In this document: in pieces, positions 3,492 to 35,945 of the stretch
Layout: each line of letters opens with the position of its first letter
Position numbering within the stretch: the stretch's first letter is position 1
The notes under the pieces: model-generated
The model's input: the letters and a program-made list of their open reading frames with translations, nothing else
Told to the model about the DNA's origin: nothing
The model's database searches: none
DNA from: Escherichia coli
GTDB lineage: Bacteria; Pseudomonadota; Gammaproteobacteria; Enterobacterales; Enterobacteriaceae
Length of the DNA: 64,000 nt
Strand: one strand, 5' to 3'
Assembly: GCF_048403405.1 (NCBI RefSeq)
Contig: NZ_CP183129.1
Program-made: the position numbers and the translations under genes

Positions 3492-3997
3492 AAAACTCCT
3501 GAATGGCGCAAGTTAATCACATGCGGCCAAAGTTCGAAATAACGCTGCCCTGAAAGCCAGGCGTCAGGATAAAGCGCCATATAGTGTTTGATACGCATCA
3601 GCGGCGCAAGAAGCGGTTGCTCGCCACGGCGATAACTGTCGATAAGCGCCGCCAGCTGCTGGCGTTCTGTGGAATCAATATGCGGGCGAAAATACCCCTG
3701 AACGTGCATCAAAACGTTGGTGTGATCGCGCGGGTTGGCGGGATGAGAAAGCAAAACAATTACGCGTTGACGGTACTGGCTGTAAAAATCATCCAGATTT
3801 TGCCACTGGTGAATATCAGCCACAAACGGGCCAAGTTTGCGGTATTCCGGCTGGGAATGCGCCAGAAAGACGAGTTTATAGCGGCTGTGATAATCGTTGA
3901 GTGCCCCGCGCGTTAAGCCATGTTCTTTCAGTCGATATAGCTCATAAATCGCGAAGATGCGGATTAGGGTGCTTTCATCAAATCGTTGCTGATTCAT
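3488..3997 (-). CDS. ybgA: DUF1722-family protein YbgA
   Basis: 169-aa ORF directly upstream of phr with a 4-nt ATGA stop/start overlap (3488..3491), the known ybgA-phr operon arrangement. Confidence 0.85.
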   Translation of the reverse strand: MNQQRFDESTLIRIFAIYELYRLKEHGLTRGALNDYHSRYKLVFLAHSQPEYRKLGPFVADIHQWQNLDDFYSQYRQRVIVLLSHPANPRDHTNVLMHVQGYFRPHIDSTERQQLAALIDSYRRGEQPLLAPLMRIKHYMALYPDAWLSGQRYFELWPHVINLRHSGVL

Positions 3998-4057
3998 TAC
4001 TGCTCCTGAGATATTAACAGGAGTAAGTGTAGACGTTGGGAAATGATGTTTGTGAAG

Positions 4058-4906
4058 TTAATCCTGTTGTAGCAGGACAAGATTACGAAAGCGCGCTCCC
4101 CGCAAGGACTGACGCCAGATAGTTTCTGTCCATGGCTGCCCTTTCCATTCAAACGTGAAATCAATAAGTTCATCAGGGACACCGCAAACAATATGAAGAC
4201 GGATTTCTTCTCTGCCGTGACTCTTTTCACTCATTGCGAAACTGTCATGCTCTGGATTATTTAATTCTTTCAGTGGGAATTTTTCCTCAAAGGCTTTATT
4301 AAGCCGTCCCTGATTTCCTTTTACAGCGAATAAATAATCACCGCCCTGTTTTTGTATCTTCTCTGCGATATCTTTCTGGCAACCCATCGCATCAGTTGTG
4401 ATAATTTTTCCTTTAATATCCAACATGTTAAGAAGTTCAGGGATAGCTGTGATCTCATTGGATTTCTCATCCGTCCTGATCTGTCCGATGACCAGACTGT
4501 GCATTGTTGAGAACGCACTAATGACATGAATCGCTCCCCTGCGGCGACTCTTGTCATAAGAATGCCGGAGCGTTTTTCCATCAATTGCAATAACGTCTTT
4601 ATCATCTGAAGAATGGCAGTCACGCATCCAGTTAATAAAGCACTCGTGAAATTTTGCAGGACTGATACAGGATACAACTCTGGCAATGGTATCGTGAACA
4701 GGAATACCATTTTCAAAATCACCATATTGCTTCAAAAAATCGAGATGTGTTTCCCCAAAATCCTCTATATCTTCCCAGCCTTCTGCACCAGAAATAACGG
4801 CACAAATAGTCAACAGTAGAATATCCGACAATTTATGTTCCACTTTCCAGGCTTGTCTGTAATCGGGGATAATAGAAATATGTTCCATCAATTTTTTAAG
4901 TTCCAT
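4058..4906 (-). mobile_element. ISAs1-family (H-repeat-associated) transposase, 3'-truncated
   Basis: 282-aa ORF starting [58 protein letters not shown], the conserved H-repeat/ISAs1 N-terminus. It is shorter than the ~370-aa full-length proteins and its last ~30 residues ([26 protein letters not shown]) read as non-conserved sequence past a deletion breakpoint. Confidence 0.8.
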
Positions 4907-5013
4907 TTTGTTCTCCTTAATTATGTAAAGAGTATTTGATCATGTATACGCAATAAAAAACAGCTTCAGGTAATGAGGAATATCTCAATTTTTAAACATA
5001 AAATGCGAATTAC

Positions 5014-5615
5014 TTAGTACAAAAAGTGTACTTCTGATGATCTTTCCCTGTCCTTGGCACCATCATTTTTTGACGCTTCAAAAATACTACTACAAGTGAG
5101 TTTAGAAAACTCTTTTCCAGATAATTCTCCAGGTTGTAATCCTCCGCCGCCAAAAATCCTACTCCCAGGATTTCCATACCTATTTAGAGCATATGAATAG
5201 CAATTATTTACGGCAAGATAATACGCATCTGAATTTAGTTCTCGATTGAATACTGGAGCAGGTTTATCAATTAAGCCCAGCGGATCAATAGAATAGGTTG
5301 GATGTATGGAAGCATATACATACTGATTCCACCCGCCTTCCAGCCCAATCGGTTCCTGAGTGATATACCGCCCCTGCAGCGGGTCATAATAGCGGTGGCG
5401 GTTGTAATACAGGCCGGACTCCTCATCATACTGCTGCCCCGGCAGACGGATAAGCTGCTGCAGGTGCTGCGGGTTCTCTTCAGTCAGCAGGTTGCCCCAT
5501 TCATCATATTCTGCGCACCATTCTGTTGCCCCGTCAGGGCTGATAAGCGTCAGCGGCAGGCCGCGATAGTCGCAGTGGTAGAGGTGGATTATTCGCAGTG
5601 GTAGAGGTGGATTAT
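5014..5615 (-). pseudogene. Orphan rhs C-terminal fragment (core end plus alternative C-terminal tip), no start codon
   Basis: My minus-strand translation gives an open frame [106 protein letters not shown] followed by a distinct ~85-aa tip ending ...[12 protein letters not shown] and a TAA at 5016..5014. Nucleotides ~5290..5560 are a near-copy of rhsC 6650..6930. The frame contains no Met, which is why the ORF track shows only the antisense ORF 5302..5604. Confidence 0.8.
5561..5613. repeat. Tandem direct repeat, 23-bp unit cgcagtggtagaggtggattatt x2 plus partial third copy
   Basis: Read directly: 5561..5583 and 5584..5606 are identical, followed by cgcagtg. It lies at the upstream boundary of the orphan rhs fragment and corresponds to rhsC sequence near 6908..6930. 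Confidence 0.85.
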
Positions 5616-5706
5616 TCGCAGTGATCTATATGCCAACGTCATCTTATTTTTCATCTACTCCAACGAGTAGACAAGTTTTTTATTAAACCATTTATACCTT
5701 TTACGA

Positions 5707-6210
5707 TTAAATTTTCTTATGTAATAGAGGTGAATAATCTTCCCAAAAATCCATACAAGCTTTACTTGCATAAAAGAATCCAGCGTCTGATTCATAAGAC
5801 ATAAACTGTGCAATAATAGATAGTTGTATATCTGAAAAATTAAAAACAAAATTCAAAAAATCATCGTGATCCCGATACTCAGGACATAAATATTGTTGAA
5901 TAAAATCGGATTCAAAAACCCAAAAATCATTCTTATTAAACAACGAGGCATAAATATACAGAGGGATGTAATAGCAGAATACTTTCTCAGGGAGGAATGT
6001 AATTCCTAACTCTAAAGCATAAGAGTCATCCTTTATTTTAAAATTGTTGGCTATTTCATTCCATTGTTTCTTTTGGAAAAAATTATATACAATATCCAGT
6101 TCCTCCAGCCCTGTAATATCATTTGAAATATGAGGTAATGGCTGGCATGGGAAATGAATCATAAGTTCATCATAGACTGCACTCTCGTTAGAGAAAATTA
6201 TTTTTTTCAT
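5707..6210 (-). CDS. Putative RhsC-associated immunity protein (RhsI-type)
   Basis: AT-rich ORF directly downstream of rhsC. The ATG at 6210..6208 ([20 protein letters not shown]...) overlaps the rhsC TGA (6209..6207) in an ATGA arrangement. The track start at 6228 is a TTG extension. No recognisable catalytic motifs; position is typical for an Rhs immunity gene. Confidence 0.7.
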
Positions 6211-9200
6211 TTTATTAAGCCACTGCAATCAGCTGCTGTTTTATATGCTTTATTCTCTTCTTCCATATGGGCCTTATCTCCACCACCAAAGCACTGATTA
6301 TTAATCTGCTTTCTGACCGAAGCGCACGCCAAATTTATCTCGTACCGTCTCAATATTTCTTTTCTCAGCATCTGAGGAGCGCAAGCTCTAGACTGGTTAC
6401 ATAATCTGTTTTTTTCATTTTGTAAGTCACTCAGGTTCTGGGGACTACAGTTACCACCAGGATTTACACCTGACTTATGTTCATCTGTTAATTTGTCGGC
6501 TTCTGGATTAACTTTACGGCCATATTGATCTCTGCGTTGTTGCCCACTTTGGATAACACCACCTGATGAAAATAAACCGCAACTCATCAGTGCTACAACA
6601 CTAAGAATTAACGGATTTAACCCTTGTGGGTCTATCTCTGAGATCGGATTTAACGGATACTGATAAAAATTCCATCCCCCCTTAAGCCCAATCGGATCCT
6701 GAGTGATATACCGCCCCTGCAGCGGGTCATAATAGCGGTGGCGGTTGTAATACAGGCCGGACTCCTCATCATACTGCTGACCCGGCAGGCGGATGAGCTG
6801 CTGCAGCTGATGCGGGTTCTCTTCATTCAGCAGGTTGCCCCATTCATCGTATTCTGCGTACCACGCTGTTGTCCCTTCCGTGCTGACAAGCGCCAGCGGC
6901 AGGCCGCGATGGTCGCAGTGGTACAGGTGGATTTTTCGCGCCGGCGTGTACACCGGGTCCATCTGGTTTTGCATCTGCTCCACCGTCAGGCCGCACGATG
7001 CCAGCCAGCGGCGGCTTTCCTCGCTCACCCGGTCAGTAAGGATTTCACTTTCCAGCCGGTCGAGCATCTGCACCAGCACCGGCGGGAACACCACTCTGCC
7101 ACCGTCTTCGCCGCCGGACTGCTGAAGGGCATCCGCCAGGCTGCGGCGCTGCGTTTTCGCCAGCTCACCGGTGGCGGTTTCAACTCTGATGAGTGGCGTG
7201 AAGCTCCCCGGCTGATAAACCGTCTGGATGCGGGTTCTGTCGTTCTGTATTGTGGTCAGCCGGTCGCCGTCCCAGCCGTACCAGGTCACTTCCGGTTTCC
7301 GTGACAGCGACATCCAGCCCGTCAGGTCCCGTTCACGCCGCCATACCCGTTTTGCCACCCTGCGGCCCAGCGGGTCGTAAAGATAGCGACTTTCGACCAG
7401 CGGCTCTGCATATTGTGTCCGCGTGTAGTGCACCAGCCGGTGCCGGCTGTCGTAATGATACCGGTGAGTCCGCTCATCATCCGTGCGGATAACCCCTTCC
7501 GGGATGAGGTCGGTTTTCTCTGTCAGCCTGCCGTGACGGTCATACCGGTAAAGATAGTGCGCGTCACGGGCGATACGGTTATCCGGCCACATGCTGAGGG
7601 TGCTGTCCGGGTGCAGCTCCGGGTCGGGCAGGCGGTTGCCTGCCGGGTCCGTGGCATACGGGATGCGGATATCCAGATTCGCTGCGGTGGTGTGGACGCC
7701 GGTCAGCCTGCCGGTGTCGCTGTAGCTGTAACTCCGGGTCTGGCGCGGGCTGCTGATGCGGATGAGTTCGCCGTTGTCGTTCCAGGTGTAATCGCGGTCA
7801 TACTGCAGGCTGTTCAGGTGCTGGCTCTGTAACTGCCCGGCAGAGGTGTAAGCGGTGGTGAGTTCATAACGGCCGAAGCTGCGCAGCGTTTCCCGGTGCA
7901 GGCGGTCGCGGGTGAAATCCACCAGCGGTGTGTCGCCGAGTTTCATGCCTGACAGCCAGCCGCTGCCGTAGGTCAGCCATTCCACGGCGGGCAGGCTGTC
8001 CGGTATACAGCGGTTCGCCAGTCCCTGCGCGTTGTACGCATGTCTGGTTTCATGCTGCCAGAGCAGTGCTTCCGTCTGCGGGTGATGCACCGTCTGGCGC
8101 TCACCGGTCAGGCGGCCTTTCTCATCATACCCGTAATGCACCGTCACCCGGTGGCCTTCGCTGAGATGGCTGATGCCTGTCAGCCAGCCGCGTTCGTCAT
8201 ACTGCCACTGCTCTGCAGGTTCACCCTTCACGGTGCGGTGAGTGAGGCGGTCTGCTTCGTCATAGTGCCAGTGGGTGACCAGCCCCTCATCCTCGCTGCG
8301 GATAAGTTTACCGGTCAGGTCGTGGTGATAACGCTGTGTGCGGCCGTCAAAGCCGGTTTCCTGTATCAGCCGGTCAAGTACATCGTAACGGAAGGTGGTG
8401 TGGCTGCCGTTTTCACTGGTCAGGCGGATGACCCGCCCGGCAGCATCGTATTCCATACTGCGCGTCAGACCGCCCTGCGTGGTACGAACGGGCTTTCCCC
8501 ACGCATCGTACTGTGTCCCGTTTCTGCTGCCGTCCGGGGCAATGACGGCGGTCAGGTCACCGGCGGCGTTGTATTCATACCGCGTTTCATGGCCCTGCGT
8601 GTCTTTCACCGCAATTAACTGTCCACGGCTGTCGTATGCGCGGTACTGACTCAGCCCTTCCTCGCGGTGCACCGCCGTCACCTGACCAAAACGGTCATGG
8701 TCATAACGGGTTACATAACCGGAACAGTCAGTGACGGTCAGCAACTGACCGTAACGGCTCCATGTCATGGTTTTCCGGCTGCCGGTGGCATCTTCCGTTG
8801 CGCAGGGTAAGTCACTGTGTGGATTATCATAACGGTAGCGGGTGATATCGCCGTTGTGTGCGGTTTCCTGAATCAGACGGCCGGATTCATCATATTTGCG
8901 GCGCAACTCCAGCCCGTCAGTCCCGGTGGCTGACGTTAACTGGTTGTGGTGGTTATAGTAAAATGCCGATGCCCTGCCATCCGGTGTGGTGATGCGCGTG
9001 ATGAGTCCCGTCACCACATCCGGGCTGTACTCAGTCGTCCGGCCTGCGGCATCCGTCTGTGCCTTAAGCCCGCCCACCGCGTCAAACTGACTCTGCGTGA
9101 CGCTGCCGTCCGCGTGTTCCTTTTTCACCACCCGCTTCAGCCCGCCTTCGCCCTGCGTGTGCAGCACTTCACGGCGGTCCAGACTGTCGGTGATGGTGAT

Positions 9201-10358
9201 GCGGTCTTTCTCATACTGATACGTGTAGCTTAAGCCTGCCGGGTTTAGCTGTTCTGTCACCCGCCCGTCGCTGTCGTAACGGTAACGGATATCCGGCCGG
9301 CCCGTGTGACGGTGCGCCACCATCCGGCCCCGGTATTTATCATCGTAAGTAAAGCTGCGCACCTGTGTATTGCTGCGGTCATACACCGCCGCCAGTTCGC
9401 CGCGTGGCGTCCAGCCATAGCGCACCAGCGGCGCGGCAGGTAAATTCTCCGGGTATTCCGGGTCGTGCGTCAGCCACACGGCAGACAGACGGATGCCGTT
9501 GTCCCGGCCATATTCGGTGTAACCCGGCAGGGTATCAGGAAAAACGGACGGTTCCGTCCCGCCGGAAATGGCCTGCTGCCGGGCTTCTTCTGCCCGCTGC
9601 GCCTGCGTGGTCAGTACCAGCCGGAAGTGACGCCCGGCACCATCCGTCACGCCGGTGATTTCGCCGCTGAATTCGCCGCCAGCCTCACGGTGAAACGTCT
9701 GTGTGCGCCCGAAGCGGTCCACCAGCCCGGTCAGTACCCGGTACGGCGGCAGCGGCGCGGGCAGCACCTCATCCGCCTCCGGCACCCGCTCACACCAGCC
9801 GAGTACCCACCACGGCCCCTGCGGACTGTTTGTCGCCAGATAACGATGCGGACTCAGGCGAAGCTCTTCCGGCAGCGCCTGCCAGAGTGCGGCCAGCCGG
9901 TGACCTTCATCCAGTTTCGCCACGCCGCCGCGCACCAGCCAGAGTGACTCGCTGCGGCTGTAACCGTCCTCACCGGGAAACAGGTGCTCAAAATACAGGC
10001 TTCTGCCGCCGTTATCACTGAGTGTCAGTGTGTTATCGCGCAGCTGTAAGCGGATATCCGCAGGCATTTTCCAGCCGGGGCCGAGGCTCCCCACCGGCGC
10101 GGGCGTTTTTGTCCGGTAACTGCTGTAGGTGCGGGAGAGGATGAACGGCAGCGGGCCGGGCAGGGCAAGGTCGGTTTCGCCGGGAAGGACCTTCGCACCG
10201 AGCAGCGGATTGACCGGATGGCCGGACGTCACCCCGCCGGGGCACACCGAACAGGCCACGCCGGTGGGGGCACCAATACGTACCCCGGCTGAACCCTGAA
10301 CAATGCTACCGCCATACTGCGTCATGTCGCCCTGACGCGCCGCCGGTTTTCCGCTCAT
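6207..10358 (-). CDS. rhsC: Rhs-family polymorphic toxin (YD-repeat protein) with variable C-terminal tip
   Basis: 1383-aa product; N-terminus [31 protein letters not shown] (PAAR-like), many YD repeats ([33 protein letters not shown]), and the core-ending PxxxxDPxGL region ([32 protein letters not shown]) followed by a ~140-aa divergent tip. Chromosomal context (ybfA, kdp) matches rhsC. Confidence 0.9.
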
Positions 10359-10546
10359 CTGCTCATCCTTGTTTTATCGGGTTATTTGTCTGCTGACAGG
10401 CGAAACCCTACAGATTTATAAGAAAGCCTTAAGTGAGATATCTGTCAGATAAGAACAATTAGGAAAATATTTATATATATTTCATGAATATATGTTTCGA
10501 TTGGTATAACGGTGTCTAAATATTCCTCTGAACATCTTCCTGATAC

Positions 10547-14963: not shown

Positions 14964-15536
14964 ATGAGTGGATTACGTCCGGCATTATCAACATTTATCT
15001 TTCTGTTATTGATCACTGGCGGCGTTTACCCGCTGCTGACCACCGTGCTGGGGCAATGGTGGTTTCCCTGGCAGGCCAACGGTTCGTTGATTCGTGAAGG
15101 TGATACGGTGCGCGGTTCGGCATTAATCGGGCAGAATTTTACCGGCAACGGCTATTTTCATGGTCGCCCGTCGGCAACGGCAGAAATACCCTATAATCCA
15201 CAGGCTTCTGGCGGGAGCAATCTGGCGGTCAGTAACCCTGAGCTGGATAAACTAATAGCCGCACGCGTTGCTGCATTACGGGCCGCTAACCCGGATGCCA
15301 GCGCGAGCGTTCCGGTTGAACTGGTGACGGCATCGGCAAGCGGGCTGGACAATAATATCACCCCGCAAGCGGCGGCATGGCAGATCCCACGCGTGGCGAA
15401 AGCGCGTAATCTCAGCGTTGAACAGCTCACGCAACTGATCGCAAAATACAGCCAACAACCGCTGGTGAAATATATCGGCCAGCCGGTCGTCAACATTGTC
15501 GAACTCAATCTGGCGCTGGATAAGCTTGATGAATAA
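14964..15536 (+). CDS. kdpC: K+-transporting ATPase subunit C
   Basis: Start set at internal ATG ([25 protein letters not shown]...), giving 190 aa; the track ORF begins 8 codons upstream and overlaps the kdpB 3' end. Confidence 0.9.
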
Positions 15537-18213
15537 CGAACCCTTACGTCCCGACCCCGATCGTCTGCTGGAACAAACTGCCGCGCCGCATCGGGGGAAG
15601 CTGAAAGTTTTCTTCGGTGCCTGCGCAGGCGTCGGGAAGACCTGGGCGATGCTGGCAGAAGCCCAGCGACTGCGGGCGCAAGGGCTGGATATTGTGGTTG
15701 GCGTGGTAGAAACCCACGGGCGGAAAGATACCGCCGCAATGCTGGAAGGGCTGGCTGTTCTGCCGTTAAAACGCCAGGCGTACCGTGGGCGGCACATCAG
15801 CGAGTTTGATCTCGATGCCGCCCTCGCCCGCCGTCCGGCACTGATCTTAATGGACGAACTGGCGCACAGTAATGCGCCAGGTTCTCGTCATCCCAAACGC
15901 TGGCAGGATATTGAAGAGTTGCTGGAAGCTGGCATTGATGTTTTCACTACCGTCAACGTTCAACATCTGGAAAGTCTGAATGATGTGGTCAGCGGCGTCA
16001 CCGGAATTCAGGTACGAGAAACCGTGCCCGATCCTTTTTTCGATGCCGCCGACGACGTGGTGCTGGTGGACTTGCCCCCGGACGATCTGCGCCAGCGGCT
16101 GAAAGAAGGCAAAGTCTATATTGCCGGGCAGGCGGAGCGCGCCATTGAACATTTTTTCCGCAAAGGCAATCTGATCGCCCTGCGCGAACTGGCACTGCGC
16201 CGTACTGCCGATCGCGTAGATGAGCAAATGCGCGCCTGGCGGGGGCATCCTGGCGAAGAGAAAGTCTGGCACACGCGCGACGCGATCCTTTTATGCATCG
16301 GGCATAACACCGGCAGCGAAAAACTGGTCCGCGCGGCGGCGCGGCTGGCGTCACGGCTGGGAAGCGTCTGGCACGCGGTGTATGTTGAAACCCCTGCCCT
16401 GCACCGCTTACCGGAGAAAAAACGTCGGGCAATTCTCAGCGCCTTACGTCTGGCGCAGGAGCTGGGCGCGGAGACGGCAACACTTTCTGATCCAGCGGAA
16501 GAGAAAGCGGTAGTGCGTTATGCCCGTGAACATAATCTCGGCAAGATTATTCTCGGTCGCCCGGCCTCGCGCCGCTGGTGGCGTCGGGAAACGTTTGCTG
16601 ACCGACTGGCGCGAATCGCCCCCGATCTCGATCAGGTGCTGGTCGCGCTTGATGAACCACCCGCCCGCACGATAAACAACGCGCCGGATAGCCGCTCTTT
16701 TAAAGACAAGTGGCGGGTACAGATTCAGGGATGCGTGGTTGCCGCCGCGTTATGCGCCGTTATCACCTTAATTGCCATGCAGTGGCTGATGGCGTTTGAT
16801 GCCGCCAACCTGGTGATGCTGTATCTGCTTGGCGTGGTGGTGGTGGCGCTATTTTATGGACGCTGGCCTTCGGTGGTTGCCACCGTTATTAATGTGGTGA
16901 GTTTCGATCTCTTTTTTATCGCCCCACGCGGCACGCTCGCCGTCTCTGATGTGCAATATCTGCTGACCTTCGCGGTGATGTTAACCGTCGGGCTGGTGAT
17001 CGGGAACCTTACTGCGGGTGTGCGTTATCAGGCGCGGGTAGCCCGTTACCGCGAGCAACGCACACGGCACTTATATGAAATGTCGAAAGCTCTGGCTGTG
17101 GGCCGCAGTCCGCAGGACATCGCCGCCACCAGCGAACAATTTATTGCCTCCACGTTTCATGCCCGCAGTCAGGTGTTGTTGCCCGATGACAACGGTAAAT
17201 TGCAGCCGTTAACACATCCGCAAGGAATGACGCCGTGGGACGATGCCATCGCGCAGTGGAGTTTTGATAAAGGCCTGCCTGCGGGCGCGGGCACCGACAC
17301 GTTACCCGGTGTACCGTACCAGATTCTGCCGTTAAAAAGCGGCGAGAAAACCTACGGACTGGTGGTGGTAGAACCGGGGAATCTGCGTCAGTTGATGATC
17401 CCGGAACAGCAGCGCCTGCTGGAGACATTTACGCTGTTAGTCGCCAATGCGCTTGAGCGGCTGACGCTGACCGCCAGCGAAGAACAGGCGCGGATGGCAA
17501 GCGAACGAGAACAGATCCGCAACGCCCTGCTGGCGGCGCTTTCGCATGATTTACGCACGCCGCTTACGGTGCTGTTCGGTCAGGCAGAAATCTTAACGCT
17601 CGATCTGGCAAGCGAAGGATCGCCTCACGCCCGCCAGGCCAGCGAGATTCGCCAGCATGTGCTGAACACGACCCGACTGGTGAATAATCTACTGGATATG
17701 GCGCGAATTCAGTCCGGCGGCTTTAATTTGAAGAAAGAGTGGTTAACGCTGGAAGAAGTGGTCGGCAGCGCGCTGCAAATGCTGGAACCGGGTTTATCGT
17801 CGCCCATCAATCTTTCTCTGCCAGAACCGCTGACCTTAATCCACGTTGACGGGCCGCTCTTTGAACGGGTGCTGATTAATCTGCTGGAGAACGCGGTGAA
17901 ATACGCGGGGGCGCAGGCCGAAATTGGTATCGATGCCCACGTTGAGGGCGAGAAGCTACAACTGGATGTCTGGGATAACGGCCCCGGTCTTCCGCCAGGC
18001 CAGGAGCAGACGATATTTGATAAGTTTGCTCGCGGGAATAAAGAGTCGGCGGTACCGGGTGTCGGGCTTGGGCTGGCAATTTGTCGGGCGATTGTGGATG
18101 TACACGGCGGCACCATTACCGCGTTCAACCGACCGGAAGGTGGTGCCTGTTTTCGTGTTACACTTCCCCAGCAAACTGCCCCTGAACTTGAAGAATTTCA
18201 TGAGGATATGTGA
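15529..18213 (+). CDS. kdpD: Sensor histidine kinase KdpD
   Basis: Start set at [16 protein letters not shown] (894 aa). Contains the Walker-type N-terminal domain (GACAGVGKT), membrane segments and the H-box [12 protein letters not shown]. Confidence 0.95.
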
Positions 18214-18887
18214 CAAACGTTCTGATTGTTGAAGATGAACAGGCTATTCGTCGCTTTCTGCGCACGGCGCTGGAGGGCGACGGTATGCGCGTCTTTGAGG
18301 CCGAAACGCTGCAACGCGGCTTGCTGGAAGCGGCAACCCGTAAGCCAGATTTGATTATTCTCGATCTCGGCCTGCCCGATGGTGATGGGATTGAGTTTAT
18401 CCGCGACCTGCGCCAGTGGAGCGCGGTGCCGGTGATTGTGCTTTCCGCACGTAGCGAAGAGAGCGATAAAATCGCCGCGCTGGATGCCGGAGCGGATGAT
18501 TACCTGAGTAAGCCATTTGGTATTGGCGAATTGCAGGCCCGTCTGCGCGTCGCTTTACGCCGCCACTCCGCCACCACCGCGCCCGATCCGCTGGTGAAAT
18601 TTTCCGATGTTACCGTCGATTTAGCGGCTCGTGTGATCCATCGCGGTGACGAAGAGGTGCATCTCACCCCGATTGAGTTCCGCCTGCTGGCGGTGCTACT
18701 TAACAATGCCGGAAAAGTACTCACCCAGCGCCAGTTACTCAATCAGGTGTGGGGACCAAACGCGGTCGAACACAGTCATTATTTGCGTATTTATATGGGG
18801 CATCTGCGACAAAAACTGGAACAGGATCCCGCCCGGCCTCGCCATTTCATTACTGAAACCGGTATTGGGTATCGGTTTATGCTTTAG
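18210..18887 (+). CDS. kdpE: Response regulator KdpE (OmpR family)
   Basis: 225 aa; GTG start overlapping the kdpD stop (GTGA), receiver domain (IILDLGLPDGDG) and winged-helix C-terminus. Confidence 0.95.
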   Translation: MTNVLIVEDEQAIRRFLRTALEGDGMRVFEAETLQRGLLEAATRKPDLIILDLGLPDGDGIEFIRDLRQWSAVPVIVLSARSEESDKIAALDAGADDYLSKPFGIGELQARLRVALRRHSATTAPDPLVKFSDVTVDLAARVIHRGDEEVHLTPIEFRLLAVLLNNAGKVLTQRQLLNQVWGPNAVEHSHYLRIYMGHLRQKLEQDPARPRHFITETGIGYRFML

Positions 18888-18894
18888 GCGGTTA

Positions 18895-18995
18895 AATGCT
18901 GGATCCGGCATGAACGCCTTATCCGGCCTACAAAATAGCGCAAATTCAATATATTGCACCATCCTCGCAGGCCTGATAAGCGTAGCGCATCAGGC
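18895..18995. repeat. REP/palindromic-unit-like elements in the kdpE-pgm intergenic region
   Basis: Imperfect palindromes ccggcatgaacgccttatccgg and gcctgataagcgtagcgcatcaggc, typical of enterobacterial REP sequences. Confidence 0.55.
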
Positions 18996-19005
18996 AGTCA
19001 TAAGT

Positions 19006-19038
19006 AAAAAAGGGCGATCTTCCGACCGCCCTTTTTCT
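19006..19038. terminator. Rho-independent terminator downstream of pgm (aaaaaagggcgatcttccgaccgccctttttctt)
   Basis: GC-rich stem gggcg...cgccc with flanking A- and T-runs, 13 bp past the pgm stop. Confidence 0.6.
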
Positions 19039-19050
19039 TATTTAATGTGT

Positions 19051-20691
19051 TTACGCGTTTTTCAGAACTTCGCTAACAATCTCGACCGCTTCTTTCTCGA
19101 TCTGCTTGCGATGCTCTTCACCGAGGAAGCTTTCGCAATAAATCTTGTACGCGTCTTCCGTGCCTGACGGACGCGCGGCGAACCAGCCGTTGTCAGTCAT
19201 CACTTTCAGACCGCCAATAGAAGCACCATTGCCCGGTGCCGCAGTCAGGCGCGCAGTGATCGGGTCACCTGCCAGGGTGCTGGCGCTCACCATTTCCGGA
19301 GACAGCTTAGACAACGCCGCTTTTTGTGCGGAAGTCGCAGCTGCCTGCAAACGGTTGTAGCTCGGCGCACCAAAGCGTTTTGCCAGTTCGTTGTAGTGTT
19401 CCTGCGGGTTCTTACCGGTGACAGCGGTGATTTCCGCCGCCAGCAGACACATAATGATGCCGTCTTTGTCGGTGGACCACGGCGTGCCGTCGAAACGCAG
19501 GAAGGAAGCCCCTGCGCTCTCTTCGCCGCCAAAGCCGAAGCTGCCATCGAACAGACCATCAACAAACCATTTGAAACCTACCGGGACTTCTACCAGCTTA
19601 CGGCCCAAGTCATTGACCACACGGTCGATCATCGCAGATGAAACCAGCGTTTTACCGACAGCAACATCTTTGCCCCACTGCGGACGATGCTGGAACAGGT
19701 AGTTGATCGCCACCGCCAGGTAGTGGTTCGGATTCATCAAACCTGCCGGAGTGACGATACCGTGACGGTCATAATCCGGGTCGTTAGCAAACGCCAGATC
19801 GAACTTATCACGCAGTGCCAGCAGGCCCGCCATCGCACACTCGGAGGAGCAGTCCATACGGATCGCACCGTCTTTATCGAGGTGCATAAAGCGGAAGGTT
19901 TGATCGACCTGATCGTTAACGATGGTCAGGTTGAGGTTGTAATACTCGCCAATGCGCTTCCAGTATTCGATACCGGAACCACCCAGCGGATCAACGCCCA
20001 GCGTCAGGCCCGCTTTCTGAATCGCCGCCATATCAACGATATCGGCCAGCCCTTCCACAAACGGCTGCACCAGATCCTGCTCTTTCACATGACCGGATGC
20101 CATCGCTTCGTCGAGGGAGATACGCTTCACGCCTTTCAGGCCATCGGCCATCAGTGCGTTGGCCCTGTCTTCCACCACTTTGGTGACGTTAGTATCAGCC
20201 GGGCCACCATTTGGCGGATTGTACTTGATACCACCATCTTCCGGCGGGTTATGGGACGGTGTAATCACGATACCGTCTGCCAGAGGGCCACCTTTTTTAT
20301 TGTGAACCAGAATGGCATTGGAAATGGCAGGTGTCGGAGTGAAGCCATTGTTTTCCTGCACAATGACATCAACGCCGTTCGCTGCCAGCACTTCCAGTAC
20401 GGAAATGAACGCAGGCTCGGACAGGGCGTGAGTATCTTTACCCACATAGCAAGGGCCAGTGATGCCGTTTTTCGCACGTTCTTCAGCAATTGCCTGAGCG
20501 ATCGCCAGAATGTGCGGCTCGTTAAAGCTGTGGCGCGCTGCACTGCCACGGTGACCGGAAGTACCGAATTTCACCGCGTGCTCCGCATTCCCTGCTTCTG
20601 GTTTCAGTACATAATATTGCGCCGTCAGTTGGGCGACGTTAATCAAATCACTCTGTTGTGCAGGTTGGCCTGCACGATTGTGGATTGCCAT
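19051..20691 (-). CDS. pgm: Phosphoglucomutase
   Basis: Start set at [22 protein letters not shown] (546 aa); active-site phosphoserine loop [14 protein letters not shown] present. The track ORF is extended 17 codons upstream. Confidence 0.95.
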
Positions 20692-28246: not shown

Positions 28247-29008
28247 TTAATCGGCTATGATTAAACGCGTCGATAAGGACGCAAGCGTTCTACGCGTCTG
28301 CCCATCAAGCTGATTATCCGTAATAATCTCTGTCAGTTCATTAAGATGCGCGATATTAAACAGCGACCATGAACCGTATTTTGAGCTGTCAGCCAGGAGA
28401 ATTTTGCGCGAAGCATGCGCGATAAGATCGCGTTTTAGTGCGGCTTTCTCTTCCGTGGGTGCTGTAATACCCTTTTCAAGATCCCAGCTGTTACAGCTTA
28501 AAAATGCCACGTCCGGCCAGGTATTTTGCAGCAATTTACGACCATGTTCGCCAATGCAGGACTGGCTGGAGTCGTCGATACGTCCACCGATAATCGTCAC
28601 TTCAATCTGCTTGAATTCAGCCAAAAAAAGCGCGATATGCAGGTCGCTGGTGATCACGCGAAGCGGTAAATGTGTAATCTGCCGCGCAAGTTCAATCATT
28701 GTCGTACCGGCATCAAGGACGACGGAATCCCCCGCTTTGACCATTGACGCCGCTGCGCTGGCGATGGCATGTTTTTCCGCCAGGCTGCGCTGCATTTTCT
28801 CATGGGTAGTCGGTTGGGTAGGAATAAACCGGTTGAGGGTCACACCGCCGTGTGTACGGCTGATAACACCCTGCTCATCGAGTTTTATCAGGTCTCGACG
28901 AATCGTGGCCGGCGACGCATTGGTTACCGCCACCAGCTCATCAACGGTGACCAGATTATGGCTTTTCAGGTAATCCATGATCTGCTCTAACCGGTTATAT
29001 CCCTTCAT
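28247..29008 (-). CDS. DeoR-family transcriptional regulator (island gene)
   Basis: 253 aa with N-terminal HTH ([37 protein letters not shown]) and a DeoR-type C-terminal sugar-phosphate sensor domain. Its start codon lies 1 nt from the stop of the upstream PdxA-family gene. Confidence 0.8.
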
Positions 29009-29009
29009 T

Positions 29010-29996
29010 TTATTCTCGCGAAATCTGCATTGCTAACTGGATGGAAACTGCCATGCTCTCAGACTTGGCTTTTCCTGTCCAGGCAATATCAAACGCGGTG
29101 CCGTGGTCGGCAGAAGTGCGAATAAATGGCAACCCGGCGGTGATATTCACCCCATCATAAAATCCAAGCAGTTTTAAAGGGATATGCCCCTGATCGTGGT
29201 ACATAGCCACTACCATATCGAATAGCCCTTCATGGCATTGCATAAACACGGTATCTGGCGGGCACGGGCCAGTAACATCAATATCTTCGGCCTGCATTGC
29301 TTCAATCGCAGGCGCGATAATCTCGATTTCTTCAGTGCCGAATAAACCGTGTTCCCCTGCATGTGGATTTACACCCGCCACGGCAATACGCGGACGCTCA
29401 ATACCAACACGTTTCAGGAAGTGGTTCGCAACTCGAATAACCGTTTTGACCCTTTCACCATTCAAAGTATCCAGGAATTTACGCAGTGAGATATGCGTCG
29501 AAATATGGATAACCTTGAGCTTATCGGTATAGAGCACCATCGCGTACTCTTTGCTGCCGGTAAGATGGGCCAGCAATTCCGTATGCCCCGGATAGTTATG
29601 CCCGCCAAGATGCAACGCTTCTTTATTCAGCGGCGCAGTGGCTATGGCTTTCACCTCGCCTGATAAGGCCAGGGCCGTTGCACGTTTGATACAGCGATAC
29701 GCTAAATCGCCTGCCGCAGCCTGTACCACTCCGGGTGTCAGCGCATCGGGGTTAGCCAGCGGCTCATCCATCACGTTAATCACGCCGGGAGCAAAATGGG
29801 CGTCGCACACCTTTTCAATGACGCGTAACTCTGCCTTCGGCGTGATATTCATCGCCATAATACGTCTCAGCGTGCGCACACAGCCCACCACCACCACCGG
29901 GGCACCAGCAAGCCCGGCTTCGCTCAGGGATTTAATAATGATCTCCGGGCCAATACCCGCCGGGTCGCCCATCGTTACCGCAATAATATTATTCAC
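29010..29996 (-). CDS. PdxA-family NAD-dependent dehydrogenase (PdxA2-like)
   Basis: 328 aa; N-terminus [22 protein letters not shown] matches the PdxA GxPxGIGPE signature, and [11 protein letters not shown] matches the conserved metal-binding His region. Confidence 0.8.
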
Positions 29997-31227
29997 TACG
30001 CTTCTCCTCGATAAAATTCAGAACCTGATGCAACGTGGTCTCATCGCCAAACCCACCGGCTTTCGTCATCACCGAACGGGACCAGACGCCGCCCAGAAAG
30101 TGACCGTATGGAACGCATTGCGCCACCTTCGCCGTAATACGAAATCCGGTCGCGCCTAACGCACTGGCTGTTGCCATTGCGACATCACCACCAGAGAGAT
30201 AAAGCGCATCGGGCATTGCGCGAAGCAGAACTTGCCGGGTAAGTTCGCCAAGAAACCGGCAAATTTTTTCCCCAAGCGCAGCGCGACTCATCTGCCAACG
30301 CTGGCAAAGGGTGTCGATCTGGTGCCTTGCTACAGAATCGTTACAGGTGTGGACAATGCAGTGGTCGCCTTTCTGCAAGGCCTGCACAATACGCGCGTCA
30401 TAGTCACTGGCATTGCCTGCCAGAATGTGTTCAACATCGACGTATATCTGTGTGATACGTGGGTGTGAATGAAGTGTGGCGATCTGCCGTTGAGCGATTT
30501 CGCTCATTGAACCAATAATGGCCAGCACGGTGGGTGGCGGCATAATCGTGGAGCGCCGGGCAACGGCATCACAAATACCAGCGGAGCCGACCAGCAGCAG
30601 CGGTTGTTTAGCCTGCATCACAGCGGCAGCGATGCGATCCAGGTCGCTGTCCGTCTGCGCATCTATCACGCCAATCCACGGTTGCTCATAAGACAAATGG
30701 CTGAGCTGAGAAACCGTAACGGGCTGGCATGGAATGGCCGTCTGCAACCGGATGATGTCCGCAATTCGGGCGCTCAATACCGGGGTTTTCGGATCGCTGG
30801 CAAACTCGGTTTCCGTTATCCGCACACCGTTTACCCAACACTCACCGGCCACTGTGGTCCTTCCCGCCTGAGGAAATGCGGGGGCAACCACTGCGCCCGT
30901 TATACCGCATGCCTTCATCAGGGCTTCAATTTCTGCGCCAATATTGCCTCGCAGCGTGGAATCTATCTTTTTAATCACGAGCGGAGGGTTATTCGCCAGA
31001 GGGAGATGACTCATCAGCGAGGTTATTTTCATCGCCGCCAGCTTAGGATCCATCGCCCGGCTGTCGCTGTTAATCACCCATACGCTGGCATCACCGCGAT
31101 AAGGCATTTCAAAGGCCACATCAACTGTATGCCCCACCTGCGCCAGGCTTACCCCCGCGTCATTGGCTCCCGTGAAATCATCGGCAACGACGAGAATGCT
31201 CGGCTTAGTGATTCCCTTTTCCATCAT
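29989..31227 (-). CDS. DUF1537-family four-carbon acid-sugar kinase
   Basis: N-terminal signature VVADDFTGANDAG characteristic of OtnK/DtnK-type kinases; 8-nt overlap with the downstream PdxA-family gene. Start chosen at the ATG preceded by GGAG (MMEKGITKPS...); the track ORF starts 13 codons upstream. Confidence 0.75.
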   Translation of the reverse strand: MMEKGITKPSILVVADDFTGANDAGVSLAQVGHTVDVAFEMPYRGDASVWVINSDSRAMDPKLAAMKITSLMSHLPLANNPPLVIKKIDSTLRGNIGAEIEALMKACGITGAVVAPAFPQAGRTTVAGECWVNGVRITETEFASDPKTPVLSARIADIIRLQTAIPCQPVTVSQLSHLSYEQPWIGVIDAQTDSDLDRIAAAVMQAKQPLLLVGSAGICDAVARRSTIMPPPTVLAIIGSMSEIAQRQIATLHSHPRITQIYVDVEHILAGNASDYDARIVQALQKGDHCIVHTCNDSVARHQIDTLCQRWQMSRAALGEKICRFLGELTRQVLLRAMPDALYLSGGDVAMATASALGATGFRITAKVAQCVPYGHFLGGVWSRSVMTKAGGFGDETTLHQVLNFIEEKRSE

Positions 31228-31264
31228 CACTCCAGGTTGTTTTATGATAACAATGATTATATTC

Positions 31265-31278
31265 AATCACGATTGATT
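31265..31278. promoter_or_regulatory. Operator-like inverted repeat AATCA-cgat-TGATT in the island divergent promoter
   Basis: Read directly; shares the TGATT/AATCA half-site with the second palindrome at 31360..31375. Confidence 0.4.
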
Positions 31279-31359
31279 AAATGTGAGCAAGCTCAAGTTA
31301 TTAATCACTCGAATAAATTATAAAATTAGACCATGTTACGTAGGCTACGGCATTTTGAA

Positions 31360-31375
31360 TGATTGAATTCAATCA
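31360..31375. promoter_or_regulatory. Perfect 16-bp palindrome TGATTGAATTCAATCA in the island divergent promoter
   Basis: Read directly; lies about 20 bp upstream of the Fe-ADH GTG start, consistent with a repressor operator. Confidence 0.45.
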
Positions 31376-31393
31376 CCAGAAGAGAGGTTATTT

Positions 31394-32551
31394 GTGGTAA
31401 TTATCAATAGCACGATACTGAGCGGCGCAGGCGCTATCCCTTCCCTGACGTCGCTCTTACCCGACATCAGAAAAATGCTGCTGGTCACTGACCGTAATAT
31501 TGCGCAGCTCGACGGTGTGCAGCAGATTCGCGCCTTACTGGAAAAGCACTGCCCGCAGGTTAACGTTATCGATAATGTGCCCGCAGAGCCCACGCATCAT
31601 GATGTGCGCCAGCTAATGGACGCCCCTGGCGATGCCTCTTTTGATGTGGTGGTCGGGATCGGCGGTGGCAGCGTGTTGGATGTGGCGAAGCTGCTATCGG
31701 TGCTTTGCCATCCACAATCACCAGGGCTGGATGCGCTGCTTGCGGGTGAAAAACCGACTCAGAGGGTGCAATCATGGTTGATTCCTACAACCGCCGGAAC
31801 CGGCTCAGAAGCCACGCCGAATGCGATTCTGGCAATCCCTGAGCAAAGCACGAAGGTGGGTATTATTTCCCCGGTGCTGTTACCAGACTATGTGGCGCTT
31901 TTCCCGGAACTGACCACCAGCATGCCCGCGCATATTGCGGCGTCCACGGGCATTGATGCTCTTTGCCACTTACTGGAGTGTTTTACCGCGACCGTGGCAA
32001 ATCCGGTCAGCGATAACGCGGCGCTGACTGGGTTAAGTAAGCTTTTCCGGCACATTCAACCCGCCGTGAACGATCCTCAGGATCTGCGCGCAAAACTGGA
32101 AATGCTGTGGGCGTCTTACTATGGCGGCGTAGCGATAACCCATGCGGGCACGCATCTCGTTCATGCGCTCTCCTACCCGTTAGGTGGCAAATATCATCTG
32201 CCGCATGGCGTCGCGAATGCCATCTTGCTGGCGCCGTGCATGGCGTTTGTTCGCCCCTGGGCGGTCGAGAAATTTGCCCGGGTCTGGGATTGCATTCCCG
32301 ATGCGGAAACCGCCCTGAGCGCGGAAGAAAAATCTCATGCCCTGGTGGCCTGGCTACAGGCATTAGTCAATCAACTCAAGCTACCCAACAATCTCGCGGA
32401 TCTCGGCGTACCGCCAGAGGATATTGCCTCTCTTAGCGAGGCGGCACTGAACGTGAAGCGCCTTATGAACAATGCGCCGTGCCAGCTTGATCTACAGGAC
32501 GTACAGGCCATTTACCAAACACTGTTTCCGCAACATCAATTTAAGGAATAA
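31394..32551 (+). CDS. Iron-containing (group III) alcohol dehydrogenase family oxidoreductase
   Basis: 385 aa; NAD-binding GGGSxxD motif (VGIGGGSVLDVAKLL) and conserved His cluster (HALSYPLGGKYHLPHGVANA). GTG start preceded by GAGAGG. Confidence 0.8.
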   Translation: MVIINSTILSGAGAIPSLTSLLPDIRKMLLVTDRNIAQLDGVQQIRALLEKHCPQVNVIDNVPAEPTHHDVRQLMDAPGDASFDVVVGIGGGSVLDVAKLLSVLCHPQSPGLDALLAGEKPTQRVQSWLIPTTAGTGSEATPNAILAIPEQSTKVGIISPVLLPDYVALFPELTTSMPAHIAASTGIDALCHLLECFTATVANPVSDNAALTGLSKLFRHIQPAVNDPQDLRAKLEMLWASYYGGVAITHAGTHLVHALSYPLGGKYHLPHGVANAILLAPCMAFVRPWAVEKFARVWDCIPDAETALSAEEKSHALVAWLQALVNQLKLPNNLADLGVPPEDIASLSEAALNVKRLMNNAPCQLDLQDVQAIYQTLFPQHQFKE

Positions 32552-32554
32552 ATC

Positions 32555-33442
32555 ATGCCGAAAACCATTGAAGGTGTATTAACCGCCATCGTCACCCCGT
32601 TTACCGCGACCGGCAGTCTGAATATCCCGGCGTTAAAAGTGCAGGTGAATCGTCAACTGGAAGCGGGTAACGCGATTTTTTGCGGCGGCACCAACGGCGA
32701 GTTTTTTGTGTTGAATGAACAGGAGAAGCTCAGCGTTACGCAAACCTGCGTGGATGAAGTGGCTGGTCGTGCGCCGGTCGTGGCACACATTGGCGAGATC
32801 TCGACGCGCGAAACGATTCGTCTGGGTCAGCAGATTGAAAAACTTGGCGTAGATGCTGTGTCGGTCATTACCCCTTACTTCGTACCGCTGAAACAGGAAG
32901 AGTTGATTGCGCATTACAGCGCAATTGCCGACGCGCTGAGCATTCCGATGTTTCTCTATAACATCCCGGCCCGCACTGGCAATACGATCCAGCCGGAAAC
33001 CGCGCGTGCTCTGGCGTCGCATCCCAATATCATTGGGATTAAAGACAGCGCCGGAAGCGACGAAAGCCTGAAGGGTTTTCTCGATGCTGTGCGCAACATT
33101 GACGGCTTTAATGTACTCAACGGCCCGGATTCGCTGATCCATAAAGGGTTTGTCGAGGGGTGTTCAGCCTGTATCTCTGGGCTCGCCAACGTCGCACCGC
33201 GGGAAATCAATGCTATCTGGTCTCGCGTCCATGCCGGTGATATTGAAGGGTCTTATGAAGCACAGGAGAGTGTAACGGGCCTGCGTACCGACCTTTATAA
33301 AGTAGCGTTCTCCCCGGCTGCGGTGAAAAAAGCGTTGCAGCTTATGGGGCATGATGTTGGTGATAGCCGCTACGCGGTTAATTTCACGCCTGAACAGATC
33401 AGCGAGATTCAACAAATTATTCGTCATTATAACATTAATTAA
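32555..33442 (+). CDS. DHDPS/N-acetylneuraminate-lyase-family class I aldolase or dehydratase
   Basis: 295 aa; GTNGEF motif (CGGTNGEFFVLNEQEK), the Tyr-containing ITPYF segment and the Schiff-base lysine context IGIKDSAG, typical of DapA/NanA-family enzymes. Confidence 0.8.
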   Translation: MPKTIEGVLTAIVTPFTATGSLNIPALKVQVNRQLEAGNAIFCGGTNGEFFVLNEQEKLSVTQTCVDEVAGRAPVVAHIGEISTRETIRLGQQIEKLGVDAVSVITPYFVPLKQEELIAHYSAIADALSIPMFLYNIPARTGNTIQPETARALASHPNIIGIKDSAGSDESLKGFLDAVRNIDGFNVLNGPDSLIHKGFVEGCSACISGLANVAPREINAIWSRVHAGDIEGSYEAQESVTGLRTDLYKVAFSPAAVKKALQLMGHDVGDSRYAVNFTPEQISEIQQIIRHYNIN

Positions 33443-33501
33443 ATTAACTCTATTATCCAGCCCGCGATAAAGTTTAGATAAAGAGAATAAAGGATTACTC
33501 C

Positions 33502-34260
33502 ATGTTTTTGTGGTTTATGCAGCCAGATATCTGGCTCACTTTAATTACCCTCACCTTTCTGGAAATTATTCTTGGGGTGGATAATATTATTTTTCTTTCA
33601 CTGGTGGTGGCAAAACTTCCGTTATCACAACAAAATATGGCGCGTAAACTGGGTTTAAGCTGCGCGATGATTATGCGGATATTATTGCTGATATCCATTG
33701 CGTGGCTTTCACATATTACCCAGCCGCTTTTTACCGTGCTGACGCTGGAGATTTCGTTCCGCACGTTGATTCTGCTCGGGGGCGGGCTGTTCCTGATTTA
33801 TAAAGCGATACAGGAGATACGCGAAGAGCTGTCGCCCGCGCAGGAAGACGAACATGGCAGCGGATCGCGGCAACTGTCGTTGTGCGGTGCCATCGTACAG
33901 ATAATGCTGCTCGATATCGTGTTTAGCCTGGATTCGGTGATCACCGCCGTCGGCCTTTCTCAGCATATATTTATCATGATTGCCGCCGTAATGATTGCCG
34001 TCGGTGTCATGATGTTTGCGGCGAAAACAATTGGTGATTTCGTTAACGCCACGCCGTCAATAAAAATACTGGCGTTAACCTTTTTATTATTTGTCGGTGT
34101 ATTGCTGGTTGCCGATAGTCTCAACATTCATATTGCCAAAGAGTATCTCTACTTCGCGATATTTTTCTCATTAAGTGTTGAGACACTCAATATTATCCGT
34201 GAAAGAAGAAATAAAAAAGTTTCGACATTGATCGAAACGCATGAATCGCACTCGCATTAA
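33502..34260 (+). CDS. TerC-family integral membrane protein
   Basis: 252 aa, multiple TM segments, paired TerC motifs GVDNIIF and LDIVFSLDSV. Confidence 0.7.
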   Translation: MFLWFMQPDIWLTLITLTFLEIILGVDNIIFLSLVVAKLPLSQQNMARKLGLSCAMIMRILLLISIAWLSHITQPLFTVLTLEISFRTLILLGGGLFLIYKAIQEIREELSPAQEDEHGSGSRQLSLCGAIVQIMLLDIVFSLDSVITAVGLSQHIFIMIAAVMIAVGVMMFAAKTIGDFVNATPSIKILALTFLLFVGVLLVADSLNIHIAKEYLYFAIFFSLSVETLNIIRERRNKKVSTLIETHESHSH

Positions 34261-34295
34261 TAAATCTATTACCGACTTTAAGATGGAGTCTAACT

Positions 34296-35465: not shown

Positions 35466-35932
35466 TTATCGGTAATCTCAACCATTTGTCGCTGGCGGGG
35501 CTTCCCGCCTGGGTGAGAAATATTCTGCTGTGCCCGGAGTGTTCGTTATCGGCGTTATCCGCCAGAGAGGACGGTCGCTGGCAACCTGAAGGATGTCGGT
35601 GGTTCTGCACGCTGGGAACTTCAGACACGCAACCCGCCGAACTCCGCCATACGGAGTATCACCATCTGTGGGCCGATATCCAGGTGGTGATTACTGGTTG
35701 TGAGGGCATTAATGCGGGAACGCGGCCCATCGCTCGCGAAAACGATGAAGAACGTAAGCCCGATCTGTTTATCGCCCCATCCCCTGAAAACAGTGTCGCC
35801 ATCACTCTACACCCCGGTGATTTCGCCGTCTTTATGCCTGAGGAACCTCACCAGGCGCTGTGCGCGATTGGCGCGGCTACGTCAGTACGCAAAGCGGTCT
35901 TTAAGGTACCGCGCGACATGCTGGAAGCCTAA
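35462..35932 (+). CDS. YhcH/YjgK/YiaL (DUF386) family protein
   Basis: 156 aa; C-terminal segment LHPGDFAVFMPEEPHQALCAIG resembles the conserved PGxFxVFxPxEPH motif of the YhcH/EbgC-like family. 4-nt overlap with the upstream BNR gene. Confidence 0.7.
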   Translation: MIIGNLNHLSLAGLPAWVRNILLCPECSLSALSAREDGRWQPEGCRWFCTLGTSDTQPAELRHTEYHHLWADIQVVITGCEGINAGTRPIARENDEERKPDLFIAPSPENSVAITLHPGDFAVFMPEEPHQALCAIGAATSVRKAVFKVPRDMLEA

Positions 35933-35945
35933 AAGGAGAGAAAAA

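Follow-up and report, generated by a model that had tools for sequence, protein, structure and literature searches.

Absence of speFL-speF-potE between kdpE and pgm in an Escherichia coli chromosome segment: probably one allele of an old structural polymorphism

Introduction

In Escherichia coli K-12 MG1655, the interval b0688–b0694 reads pgm, ybfP, ybfG (pseudogene), ybfI (pseudogene), potE, speF, speFL and kdpE, and the stop codons of kdpE and pgm are 5,857 bp apart. SpeF is the ornithine decarboxylase that is induced at low pH, and PotE is the putrescine/ornithine antiporter. The leader speFL senses ornithine through ribosome arrest (bioRxiv 10.1101/604074). Literature searches returned no paper that describes a polymorphism at the kdpE–pgm locus.

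In Salmonella, tandem duplications have REP sequences where their segments join. The BIME-1 type of REP-containing element is defined by one y and one z1 REP, a long conserved L linker, often with an IHF site in it, and its occurrence in single copy (PMC3333891). TnpA(REP) requires a GTAG tetranucleotide for recognition and cleaves between CC and TAC (PMC3333891). Here, a kdpE–pgm junction that consists largely of such an element is compared with the K-12 arrangement, with other E. coli alleles and with the corresponding loci of other Enterobacterales.

Materials and methods

The window is the whole stretch of E. coli DNA that was analysed, 64,000 nucleotides in length. K-12 proteins served as tblastn queries. 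The allele survey covered 5,426 complete E. coli genomes, in 360 of which kdpE lay within 1.5 kb of pgm. The speFL-speF-potE cassette was called present at ≥80% (5,038 of 5,426 genomes, 93%), as was the ybfP-ybfG-ybfI segment (1,848 of 5,426). The number of cassette-only genomes is that of genomes with the cassette minus the 1,848 of K-12 type, and the number of ybfP-only genomes is the 360 adjacent minus the 115 direct ones. A chimeric query joined the junction to segments of speF and potE, and its match places were counted per genome. The outgroup scan took one genome per species and comprised 80 Enterobacterales loci among the matches listed, a sample without E. fergusonii, E. marmotae, E. 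ruysiae, Salmonella or the E. coli type genome.

Results

Layout of the locus

The kdpFABCDE operon heads toward the kdpE–pgm junction, where kdpE and pgm converge on a spacer of 163 bp. This is the length given in the initial annotation: the kdpE stop codon ends at 18887 and that of pgm, on the minus strand, starts at 19051. The features are as follows.

15529–18213, plus strand: kdpD, sensor kinase (from the annotation of the near-identical record NZ_CP128875.1 and tblastn against K-12 KdpD)
18210–18887, plus strand: kdpE, intact, 225 aa, TAG stop
18888–19050: kdpE–pgm spacer, 163 bp, between convergent genes
18898–18931, plus strand: y-type REP in iREP orientation, ending in CTAC, variant GCTGGATCCGGCATGAACGCCTTATCCGGCCTAC
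18932–18966, plus strand: L linker of BIME-1, about 35–37 nt, from the sequence
18967–18996, plus strand: z-type REP GCAGGCCTGATAAGCGTAGCGCATCAGGCA, exact match at 18969–18995, inverted repeat I2
19007–19036, no strand assigned: hairpin AAAAAGGGCGATC-TTCC-GACCGCCCTTTTT, inverted repeat I1 and RNA fold
19051–20691, minus strand: pgm, intact, 546 aa

The genes that flank the junction are intact and colinear. KdpE differs from its K-12 counterpart by a single amino-acid change (E147D) and Pgm by two. Across its 64,000 bases the window has 38 mismatches to E. coli TUM14771, whose annotation gives the identical order, with kdpFABCDE directly followed by pgm and seqA. The 5′ half of kdpE is 98–99% identical to the E. 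coli alleles compared, and its 3′ half (about 18501–18887) differs by 5–11% per 100 nt from every other E. coli allele examined, nearly always at synonymous positions. This patch of deep synonymous divergence beside a structural breakpoint is in line with a deep coalescence near the junction.

Two further regions of the window differ in gene content or are variable. A nine-gene block at about 28247–37226, between glnS and nagE, is an accessory insertion that comprises genes for a DeoR regulator, D-threonate 4-phosphate dehydrogenase, DtnK, an iron alcohol dehydrogenase, a DHDPS-family protein, TerC, a sialidase-family protein, YhcH and an SLC13 permease; the corresponding gap between nagE and glnS measures 202 bp in K-12. 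An RHS element at about 4100–10500 (especially 9252–9568) includes a core protein, an orphan RHS fragment and a truncated ISAs1 transposase (ybfD). Of the 38 differences from TUM14771, at least 18 are clustered in this RHS region, as expected of a variable rhs tip. Literature searches returned nothing on the phylogroup of strain MS 69-1.

The spacer

By its sequence, the spacer is made up of a single BIME-1 (y iREP, L linker and z REP) and a probable hairpin terminator. Its earlier description as REP-rich is accurate, with two REPs in inverse orientation at 18898–18931 and 18967–18996. The y REP has three mismatches to the canonical y REP, where the chance expectation was zero matches. Both REPs form hairpins in the RNA fold, and inverted repeat I2 connects them. 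The L linker contains a predicted IHF-like site, ATTCAATATATTG (18944–18956), which fits eight of the nine specified positions of the IHF consensus, WATCAANNNNTTR, with one mismatch. There is one y-L-z unit in the 163 bp and no tandem array. The 103-nt element belongs to a repeat family with at least 24–40 places per E. coli genome. Since full-length copies (≥80% of the 103 nt) are found in 5,425 of 5,426 genomes, including genomes that have no copy at kdpE–pgm, the linker is conserved among copies.

The element thus resembles BIME-1 (also RIP/RIB elements) in its inverse REPs, long linker, IHF-like motif, single copy, location in the gap between two convergent genes and place in a repeat family spread across the genome. 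It differs in the three substitutions of its y REP and in the tetranucleotide of its z REP (18967–18970), which is GCAG and not GTAG. The GCAG form is shared with O145:H28 and Ecol_316, while the alignment gives GTAG in K-12, Res13, E. whittamii and the cryptic clade. With GCAG, the BIME of the window looks like a decayed copy, and it may no longer be a substrate for TnpA(REP). By analogy with other BIMEs it would probably act as a stabiliser of mRNA 3′ ends and bind IHF and gyrase.

A curated RNA family was also considered for the spacer and rejected, as all Rfam matches were below threshold. ES036 scored 33.5 bits against a gathering score of 37.6 at 18932–18974, which spans the L linker and the start of the z REP; naRNA4 scored 26 bits against 59.5 on the y REP; STnc430 and MicX were at chance level.

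The hairpin at 19007–19036 is bordered by runs of AAAAAA and TTTTT, one on each side, and an identical hairpin is found between potE and pgm in the cassette-only alleles of LF82 and O157:H7. It is likely a bidirectional intrinsic terminator, predicted to serve pgm and, in the window, kdpE, so that both convergent transcripts would probably stop at a common hairpin. A consensus terminator scan of the spacer left it unflagged because its stem has one mismatch, but it stood out in the RNA fold and in the comparison of alleles.

Structural alleles in E. coli

At least five structural alleles are found at the kdpE–pgm locus in the survey.

(d) cassette only, kdpE-speFL-speF-potE-terminator-pgm: about 3,190 genomes (about 59%), among them LF82 and O157:H7
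(a) K-12 type, as (d) with ybfI′-ybfG-ybfP and BIME-1 between potE and pgm: 1,848 genomes (34%)
(b) ybfP only, kdpE-BIME-2-ybfP-BIME-1-pgm: about 245 genomes (about 4.5%), among them Ecol_316
(c) direct, kdpE-BIME-1-pgm, the allele of the window: 115 genomes (2.1%), among them O145:H28, swine ETEC and a dog isolate
(b″) kdpE-ybfG-ybfP-BIME-1-pgm: three genomes (CUWW10, GF4-3 and KL53)

The spacer of the window stands in place of 4.3–5.9 kb of other alleles. The window has kdpE, pgm and an identical pgm-proximal hairpin in common with the majority arrangement, which is also that of E. albertii, but this arrangement has the 4.3-kb cassette where the window has about 115 bp with BIME-1. With K-12 it shares the flanking genes, their orientation, and the BIME-1 and pgm terminator beside pgm, and window positions 18897–19050 align with the K-12 pgm–ybfP spacer. 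Unlike the window, K-12 has a further 5.7 kb that consist of ybfP, ybfG′, ybfI′, a second terminator, potE, speF and speFL.

According to the initial annotation, kdpE and pgm are not neighbours in K-12. This is right, because the MG1655 interval carries the genes in question over the 5,857 bp between the two stop codons. Its gene list was correct for ybfP, speF and potE, but the region it called ybfG/ybfH is annotated as the ybfG and ybfI pseudogenes, and speFL has to be added. It had also offered an insertion in K-12 as an alternative to a deletion. This description fits the ybfI′-ybfG′-ybfP segment with BIME-1, which is extra, in 34% of genomes, to the majority arrangement with its 56-bp gap between potE and pgm. 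Each of the two alternatives is partly right, and neither is exact in its original form. The ybfP, ybfG and ybfI of K-12 are accessory DNA present in one third of E. coli genomes, and K-12 does not represent the reference state of the locus. The feature in the window is an ordinary, already-sequenced gene-content variant.

Absence of the cassette

Tblastn searches of the 64-kb window with K-12 SpeF, PotE, SpeFL, YbfP and YbfG gave zero matches, in agreement with the earlier claim that the speF-potE block is absent between kdpE and pgm. Six genomes share the exact allele; with the chimeric query, speF and potE gave no added match place in four of them and one added match place in each of the other two (TUM14771 and GN02461). 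This added match is probably a cross-match to speC, by analogy with H220, a weak-match cassette-less genome among the matches listed, whose best match is speC at 78% identity. By match class, 81 cassette-less genomes have a match at 60–80% identity and 296 have none, and at least some cassette-less genomes keep the constitutive speC. The number of genomes without the cassette (377–388) approximates that of the 360 genomes with adjacent kdpE and pgm plus the three with allele (b″). From these match places and counts, the cassette appears to have been lost and not moved. For the strain of the window, genome-wide absence of speF is read from its closest relatives.

In the spacer of the window, tblastn with the K-12 proteins reveals no trace of the cassette; the case for loss comes from phylogenetic distribution and not from a scar. 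The 10-nt flank at 18888–18897 (GCGGTTAAAT) has 8 nt, CGGTTAAA, in common with the 3′-terminal codons of potE and its stop (ACACGGTTAAA in O157:H7). It is possible that the CGGTTAAA match is a tiny remnant of the cassette, or it may be a coincidence; it is not common to other cassette-less alleles.

Age and spread of the direct junction

The kdpE stop codon is TAG in cassette-less alleles and TGA in cassette-bearing ones, so that homology between the two classes ends inside this codon. On the pgm side, the breakpoint precedes the terminator's A-tract by about 5 nt. The junction haplotype of the window (TAG stop, flank GGCGGTTAAA and y REP with TGCTGGATCC) is common to O145:H28, EC2641, CFSAN018748, 18KM2445 and, partly, Res13. 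The spacers of these strains are 96–98% identical to that of the window, and their kdpD and pgm flanks differ from it by up to 8% per 100 nt. Direct alleles of E. coli are 93–98% identical among themselves and are polymorphic for an 11-bp indel.

The same junction architecture and breakpoints are found, at 85–90% identity, in E. whittamii and in a cryptic Escherichia genome deposited as E. coli, where the junction likewise comprises a TAG stop, a flank of about 10 nt, a y iREP, L, a z REP and the terminator. A genome deposited as E. coli (L004; SCPM-O-B-8794, NZ_JAATUR010000017.1), which stood for a species of its own in the comparison, is only about 93–96% identical to the window across kdpA–kdpD and probably belongs to a cryptic Escherichia clade, not to E. 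coli proper. Because it is shared with diverged strains and two sister species, the junction is much older than the clone of six genomes. By this comparison the direct junction is old, and it has presumably persisted or spread by recombination in its flanks.

REPs as recombination sites

In Ecol_316, ybfP is bracketed by two direct copies of a 35-nt y REP, and window positions 18896–18932 align to both sides of the gene. Strain N3 is exactly Ecol_316 minus the ybfP segment, and ybfP-bearing and ybfP-less sequences part immediately after the CTAC of the shared y REP, at a reported cleavage site of TnpA(REP) (PMC3333891). This is good comparative evidence for a putative REP-to-REP exchange by which ybfP was lost or gained, and RecA or TnpA(REP) may have made the junction. 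The kdpE–pgm locus resembles known REP-mediated rearrangements in this divergence of alleles right after the y REP CTAC. The left flank and y REP of the window differ from those of the ybfP-bearing allele at about 8 of 25 positions; a simple REP–REP deletion is therefore evidenced for ybfP (Ecol_316/N3) and not for the allele of the window. The speF-potE loss, by contrast with that of ybfP, has no visible REP pair at its breakpoints. REPs at a deletion junction, which the initial annotation had pointed to, are thus borne out for the loss of ybfP (Ecol_316 against N3), but not for that of speF-potE or for the window haplotype.

The K-12 mosaic and the kdpE–ybfG allele

Just beyond potE (L003, 7722–7871 and 7872–7946), K-12 carries ybfI, a decayed 142-bp copy of the 3′ end of kdpE that is 92% identical to the kdpE end of the window (18744–18885). 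It is preceded by the second terminator, an E. albertii-like hairpin, and by a partial duplicate of the ybfP upstream region fused to half a y REP. From its composition, the ybfI region looks like a rearrangement scar that records the assembly of the K-12-type allele. In a noisy 148-nt alignment, ybfI is 84–89% identical to the kdpE 3′ ends of both classes; it ends in TGA and shares some variants with the window. Its assignment to the cassette-less or the cassette-bearing class was dropped, given the noise and the 84–89% identity to all. An integrase-type genomic island was considered for the K-12 cassette because of the duplicated 142-bp kdpE 3′ end and was rejected, as the annotation of the K-12 kdpE–pgm interval shows neither an integrase nor any other mobility gene.

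In allele (b″), a full kdpE is joined to ybfG at TGAA/AAAAGTGG, the same junction as that of ybfI and ybfG in K-12. CUWW10 (L094) and GF4-3 (L095), compared at 2867–5067, have different kdpE 3′ haplotypes and an identical kdpE–ybfG junction. Their ybfG, a pseudogene in K-12, is intact and encodes a 216-aa DUF2625 protein. Allele (b″) could be either a resident allele that received a cassette fragment, with ybfI as the displaced kdpE end, or a derivative of the K-12 type by recombination in the last 19 identical nucleotides of the repeat. The ybfI scar of K-12 and allele (b″) would fit at least one gain of the cassette into a cassette-less allele; the direction of change at the locus has not been uniform.

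Outgroups and inheritance of the cassette

In all sampled Serratia, Pantoea, Dickeya, Pectobacterium and Yersinia, kdpE adjoins pgm and the cassette is absent. The cassette is found at exactly the same site in about 30 of the 80 sampled species (among the matches listed). These include E. albertii and several members of Citrobacter, Enterobacter, Kluyvera, Lelliottia and Atlantibacter, which have close relatives without it. Nucleotide identity of the cassette is 94–96% within E. coli, 87–88% to E. albertii and 81–82% to Citrobacter. Its divergence tracks the species tree and looks like vertical inheritance in Escherichia, which makes its absence a presumed loss allele.

Erosion of the cassette is seen in other genera. 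In Klebsiella indica (L018, 10676–10760), the last 23 potE codons follow straight after kdpE, with 100% amino-acid identity to E. coli PotE 417–439, and this remnant has the clear appearance of a deletion scar. In Pseudocitrobacter faecalis (L023, 3251–5476), speF is apparently kept and there is no potE match. Like the window, K. indica has a cassette-less kdpE–pgm junction in a family with cassette-bearing relatives; unlike K. indica, the window has no such potE remnant. Neither ybfP nor ybfG was found at any of the 80 outgroup loci sampled. They are therefore accessory genes of E. coli, and outgroups cannot orient the gain or loss of ybfP.

Discussion

The window probably carries the cassette-less, or direct, allele of a structural polymorphism that is old, comprises several alleles and is situated where kdpFABCDE and seqA-pgm converge. 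According to this explanation, speFL-speF-potE would have entered an ancestrally adjacent kdpE–pgm pair early in the Enterobacteriaceae, would have been lost repeatedly thereafter, and would have passed vertically within Escherichia. In the loss allele, about 115 bp with BIME-1 would have replaced everything between a point inside the stop codon of kdpE and one shortly ahead of the pgm terminator. This allele would have arisen by about the time when E. coli parted from E. whittamii and the cryptic clade, or earlier, and persisted or moved between lineages via homologous recombination in the conserved flanks. Variants that contain ybfP would turn into direct ones when the two y REPs on either side of this gene, which are direct copies, recombine with each other. 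The lineage-specific deletion proposed in the initial annotation is right in that the absence is best read as a loss, but the same junction in varied E. coli, E. whittamii and the cryptic clade argues against its being specific to one lineage.

An assembly that collapsed at the REPs and dropped speF-potE is the least credible of the alternatives, to the point of being almost inconceivable. REPs are repeated and short-read assemblies can break there, but the identical junction is present in six independent complete genomes and the same architecture in 115, and the junction is therefore no assembly artefact. The cassette is, moreover, not found elsewhere in those chromosomes, and the genes beside the junction are intact and colinear. 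A recent, clone-specific deletion, in which y-REP recombination in a ybfP-bearing ancestor removed ybfP after speF-potE had been removed earlier in the same lineage, is improbable. It draws on Ecol_316, where ybfP lies between direct y REPs to both of which the window aligns, on N3 as the ybfP-bearing allele without ybfP, and on the pgm side of the window, which has the 11-bp deletion and GCAG in common with Ecol_316 at 98.3% identity. Against it, the left flank and y REP depart from Ecol_316 at the roughly eight positions noted above and are shared instead with diverged direct-allele strains, and two sister species have the same junction.

It is also unlikely that direct kdpE–pgm adjacency is a primitive state kept unbroken, with speFL-speF-potE gained by cassette-bearing E. 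coli, including K-12. Adjacency in the deep outgroups Serratia, Pantoea, Dickeya and Yersinia would agree with such a history. So would the 142-bp kdpE 3′ copy beyond potE in K-12, which is expected if incoming DNA displaced a resident kdpE end, the cassette-less kdpE-ybfG-ybfP-pgm alleles with intact ybfG in two kdpE haplotypes, and the post-potE terminator of K-12, which is like the E. albertii hairpin and unlike the pgm terminator of E. coli. However, 93% of E. coli have the cassette, E. albertii and many genera have it at the same site, its divergence agrees with the species tree and gives no signal of a foreign donor, and the scar that is visible, in K. indica, is one of deletion. The spacer of the window is, furthermore, a mobile BIME-1 where outgroups have a short terminator-only spacer, and ybfI ends in TGA like the cassette-bearing alleles, whereas cassette-less alleles end in TAG. 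A more elaborate history is tentatively conceivable, though we would not expect it to be the true one: the alleles with the cassette and the cassette-less ones with BIME-1 would both be older than the separation of E. coli from E. whittamii and the cryptic clade, maintained since then by selection or frequent flank recombination, and the K-12 type would be a fossil re-insertion into kdpE-ybfG-ybfP-pgm, with ybfI as the displaced kdpE 3′ end.

Under the preferred reading of an old polymorphism with a loss allele, the strain should, as predicted from its gene content, lack low-pH, ornithine-induced synthesis and export of putrescine. The interest of the locus is modest and lies in its multi-allelic, possibly trans-specific history. 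It is a compact example of a hotspot with several alleles between two convergent operons, and some of its junctions contain REP/BIME sequences. About 7% of sequenced E. coli (direct and ybfP-only alleles) should miss the SpeF/PotE branch of acid-stress and polyamine metabolism together with the ornithine-sensing leader, and carriers of cassette-less alleles include O145:H28 STEC as well as many clinical isolates from humans. This has little practical weight, but it matters when results on polyamines or acid resistance from K-12 are transferred to such strains.
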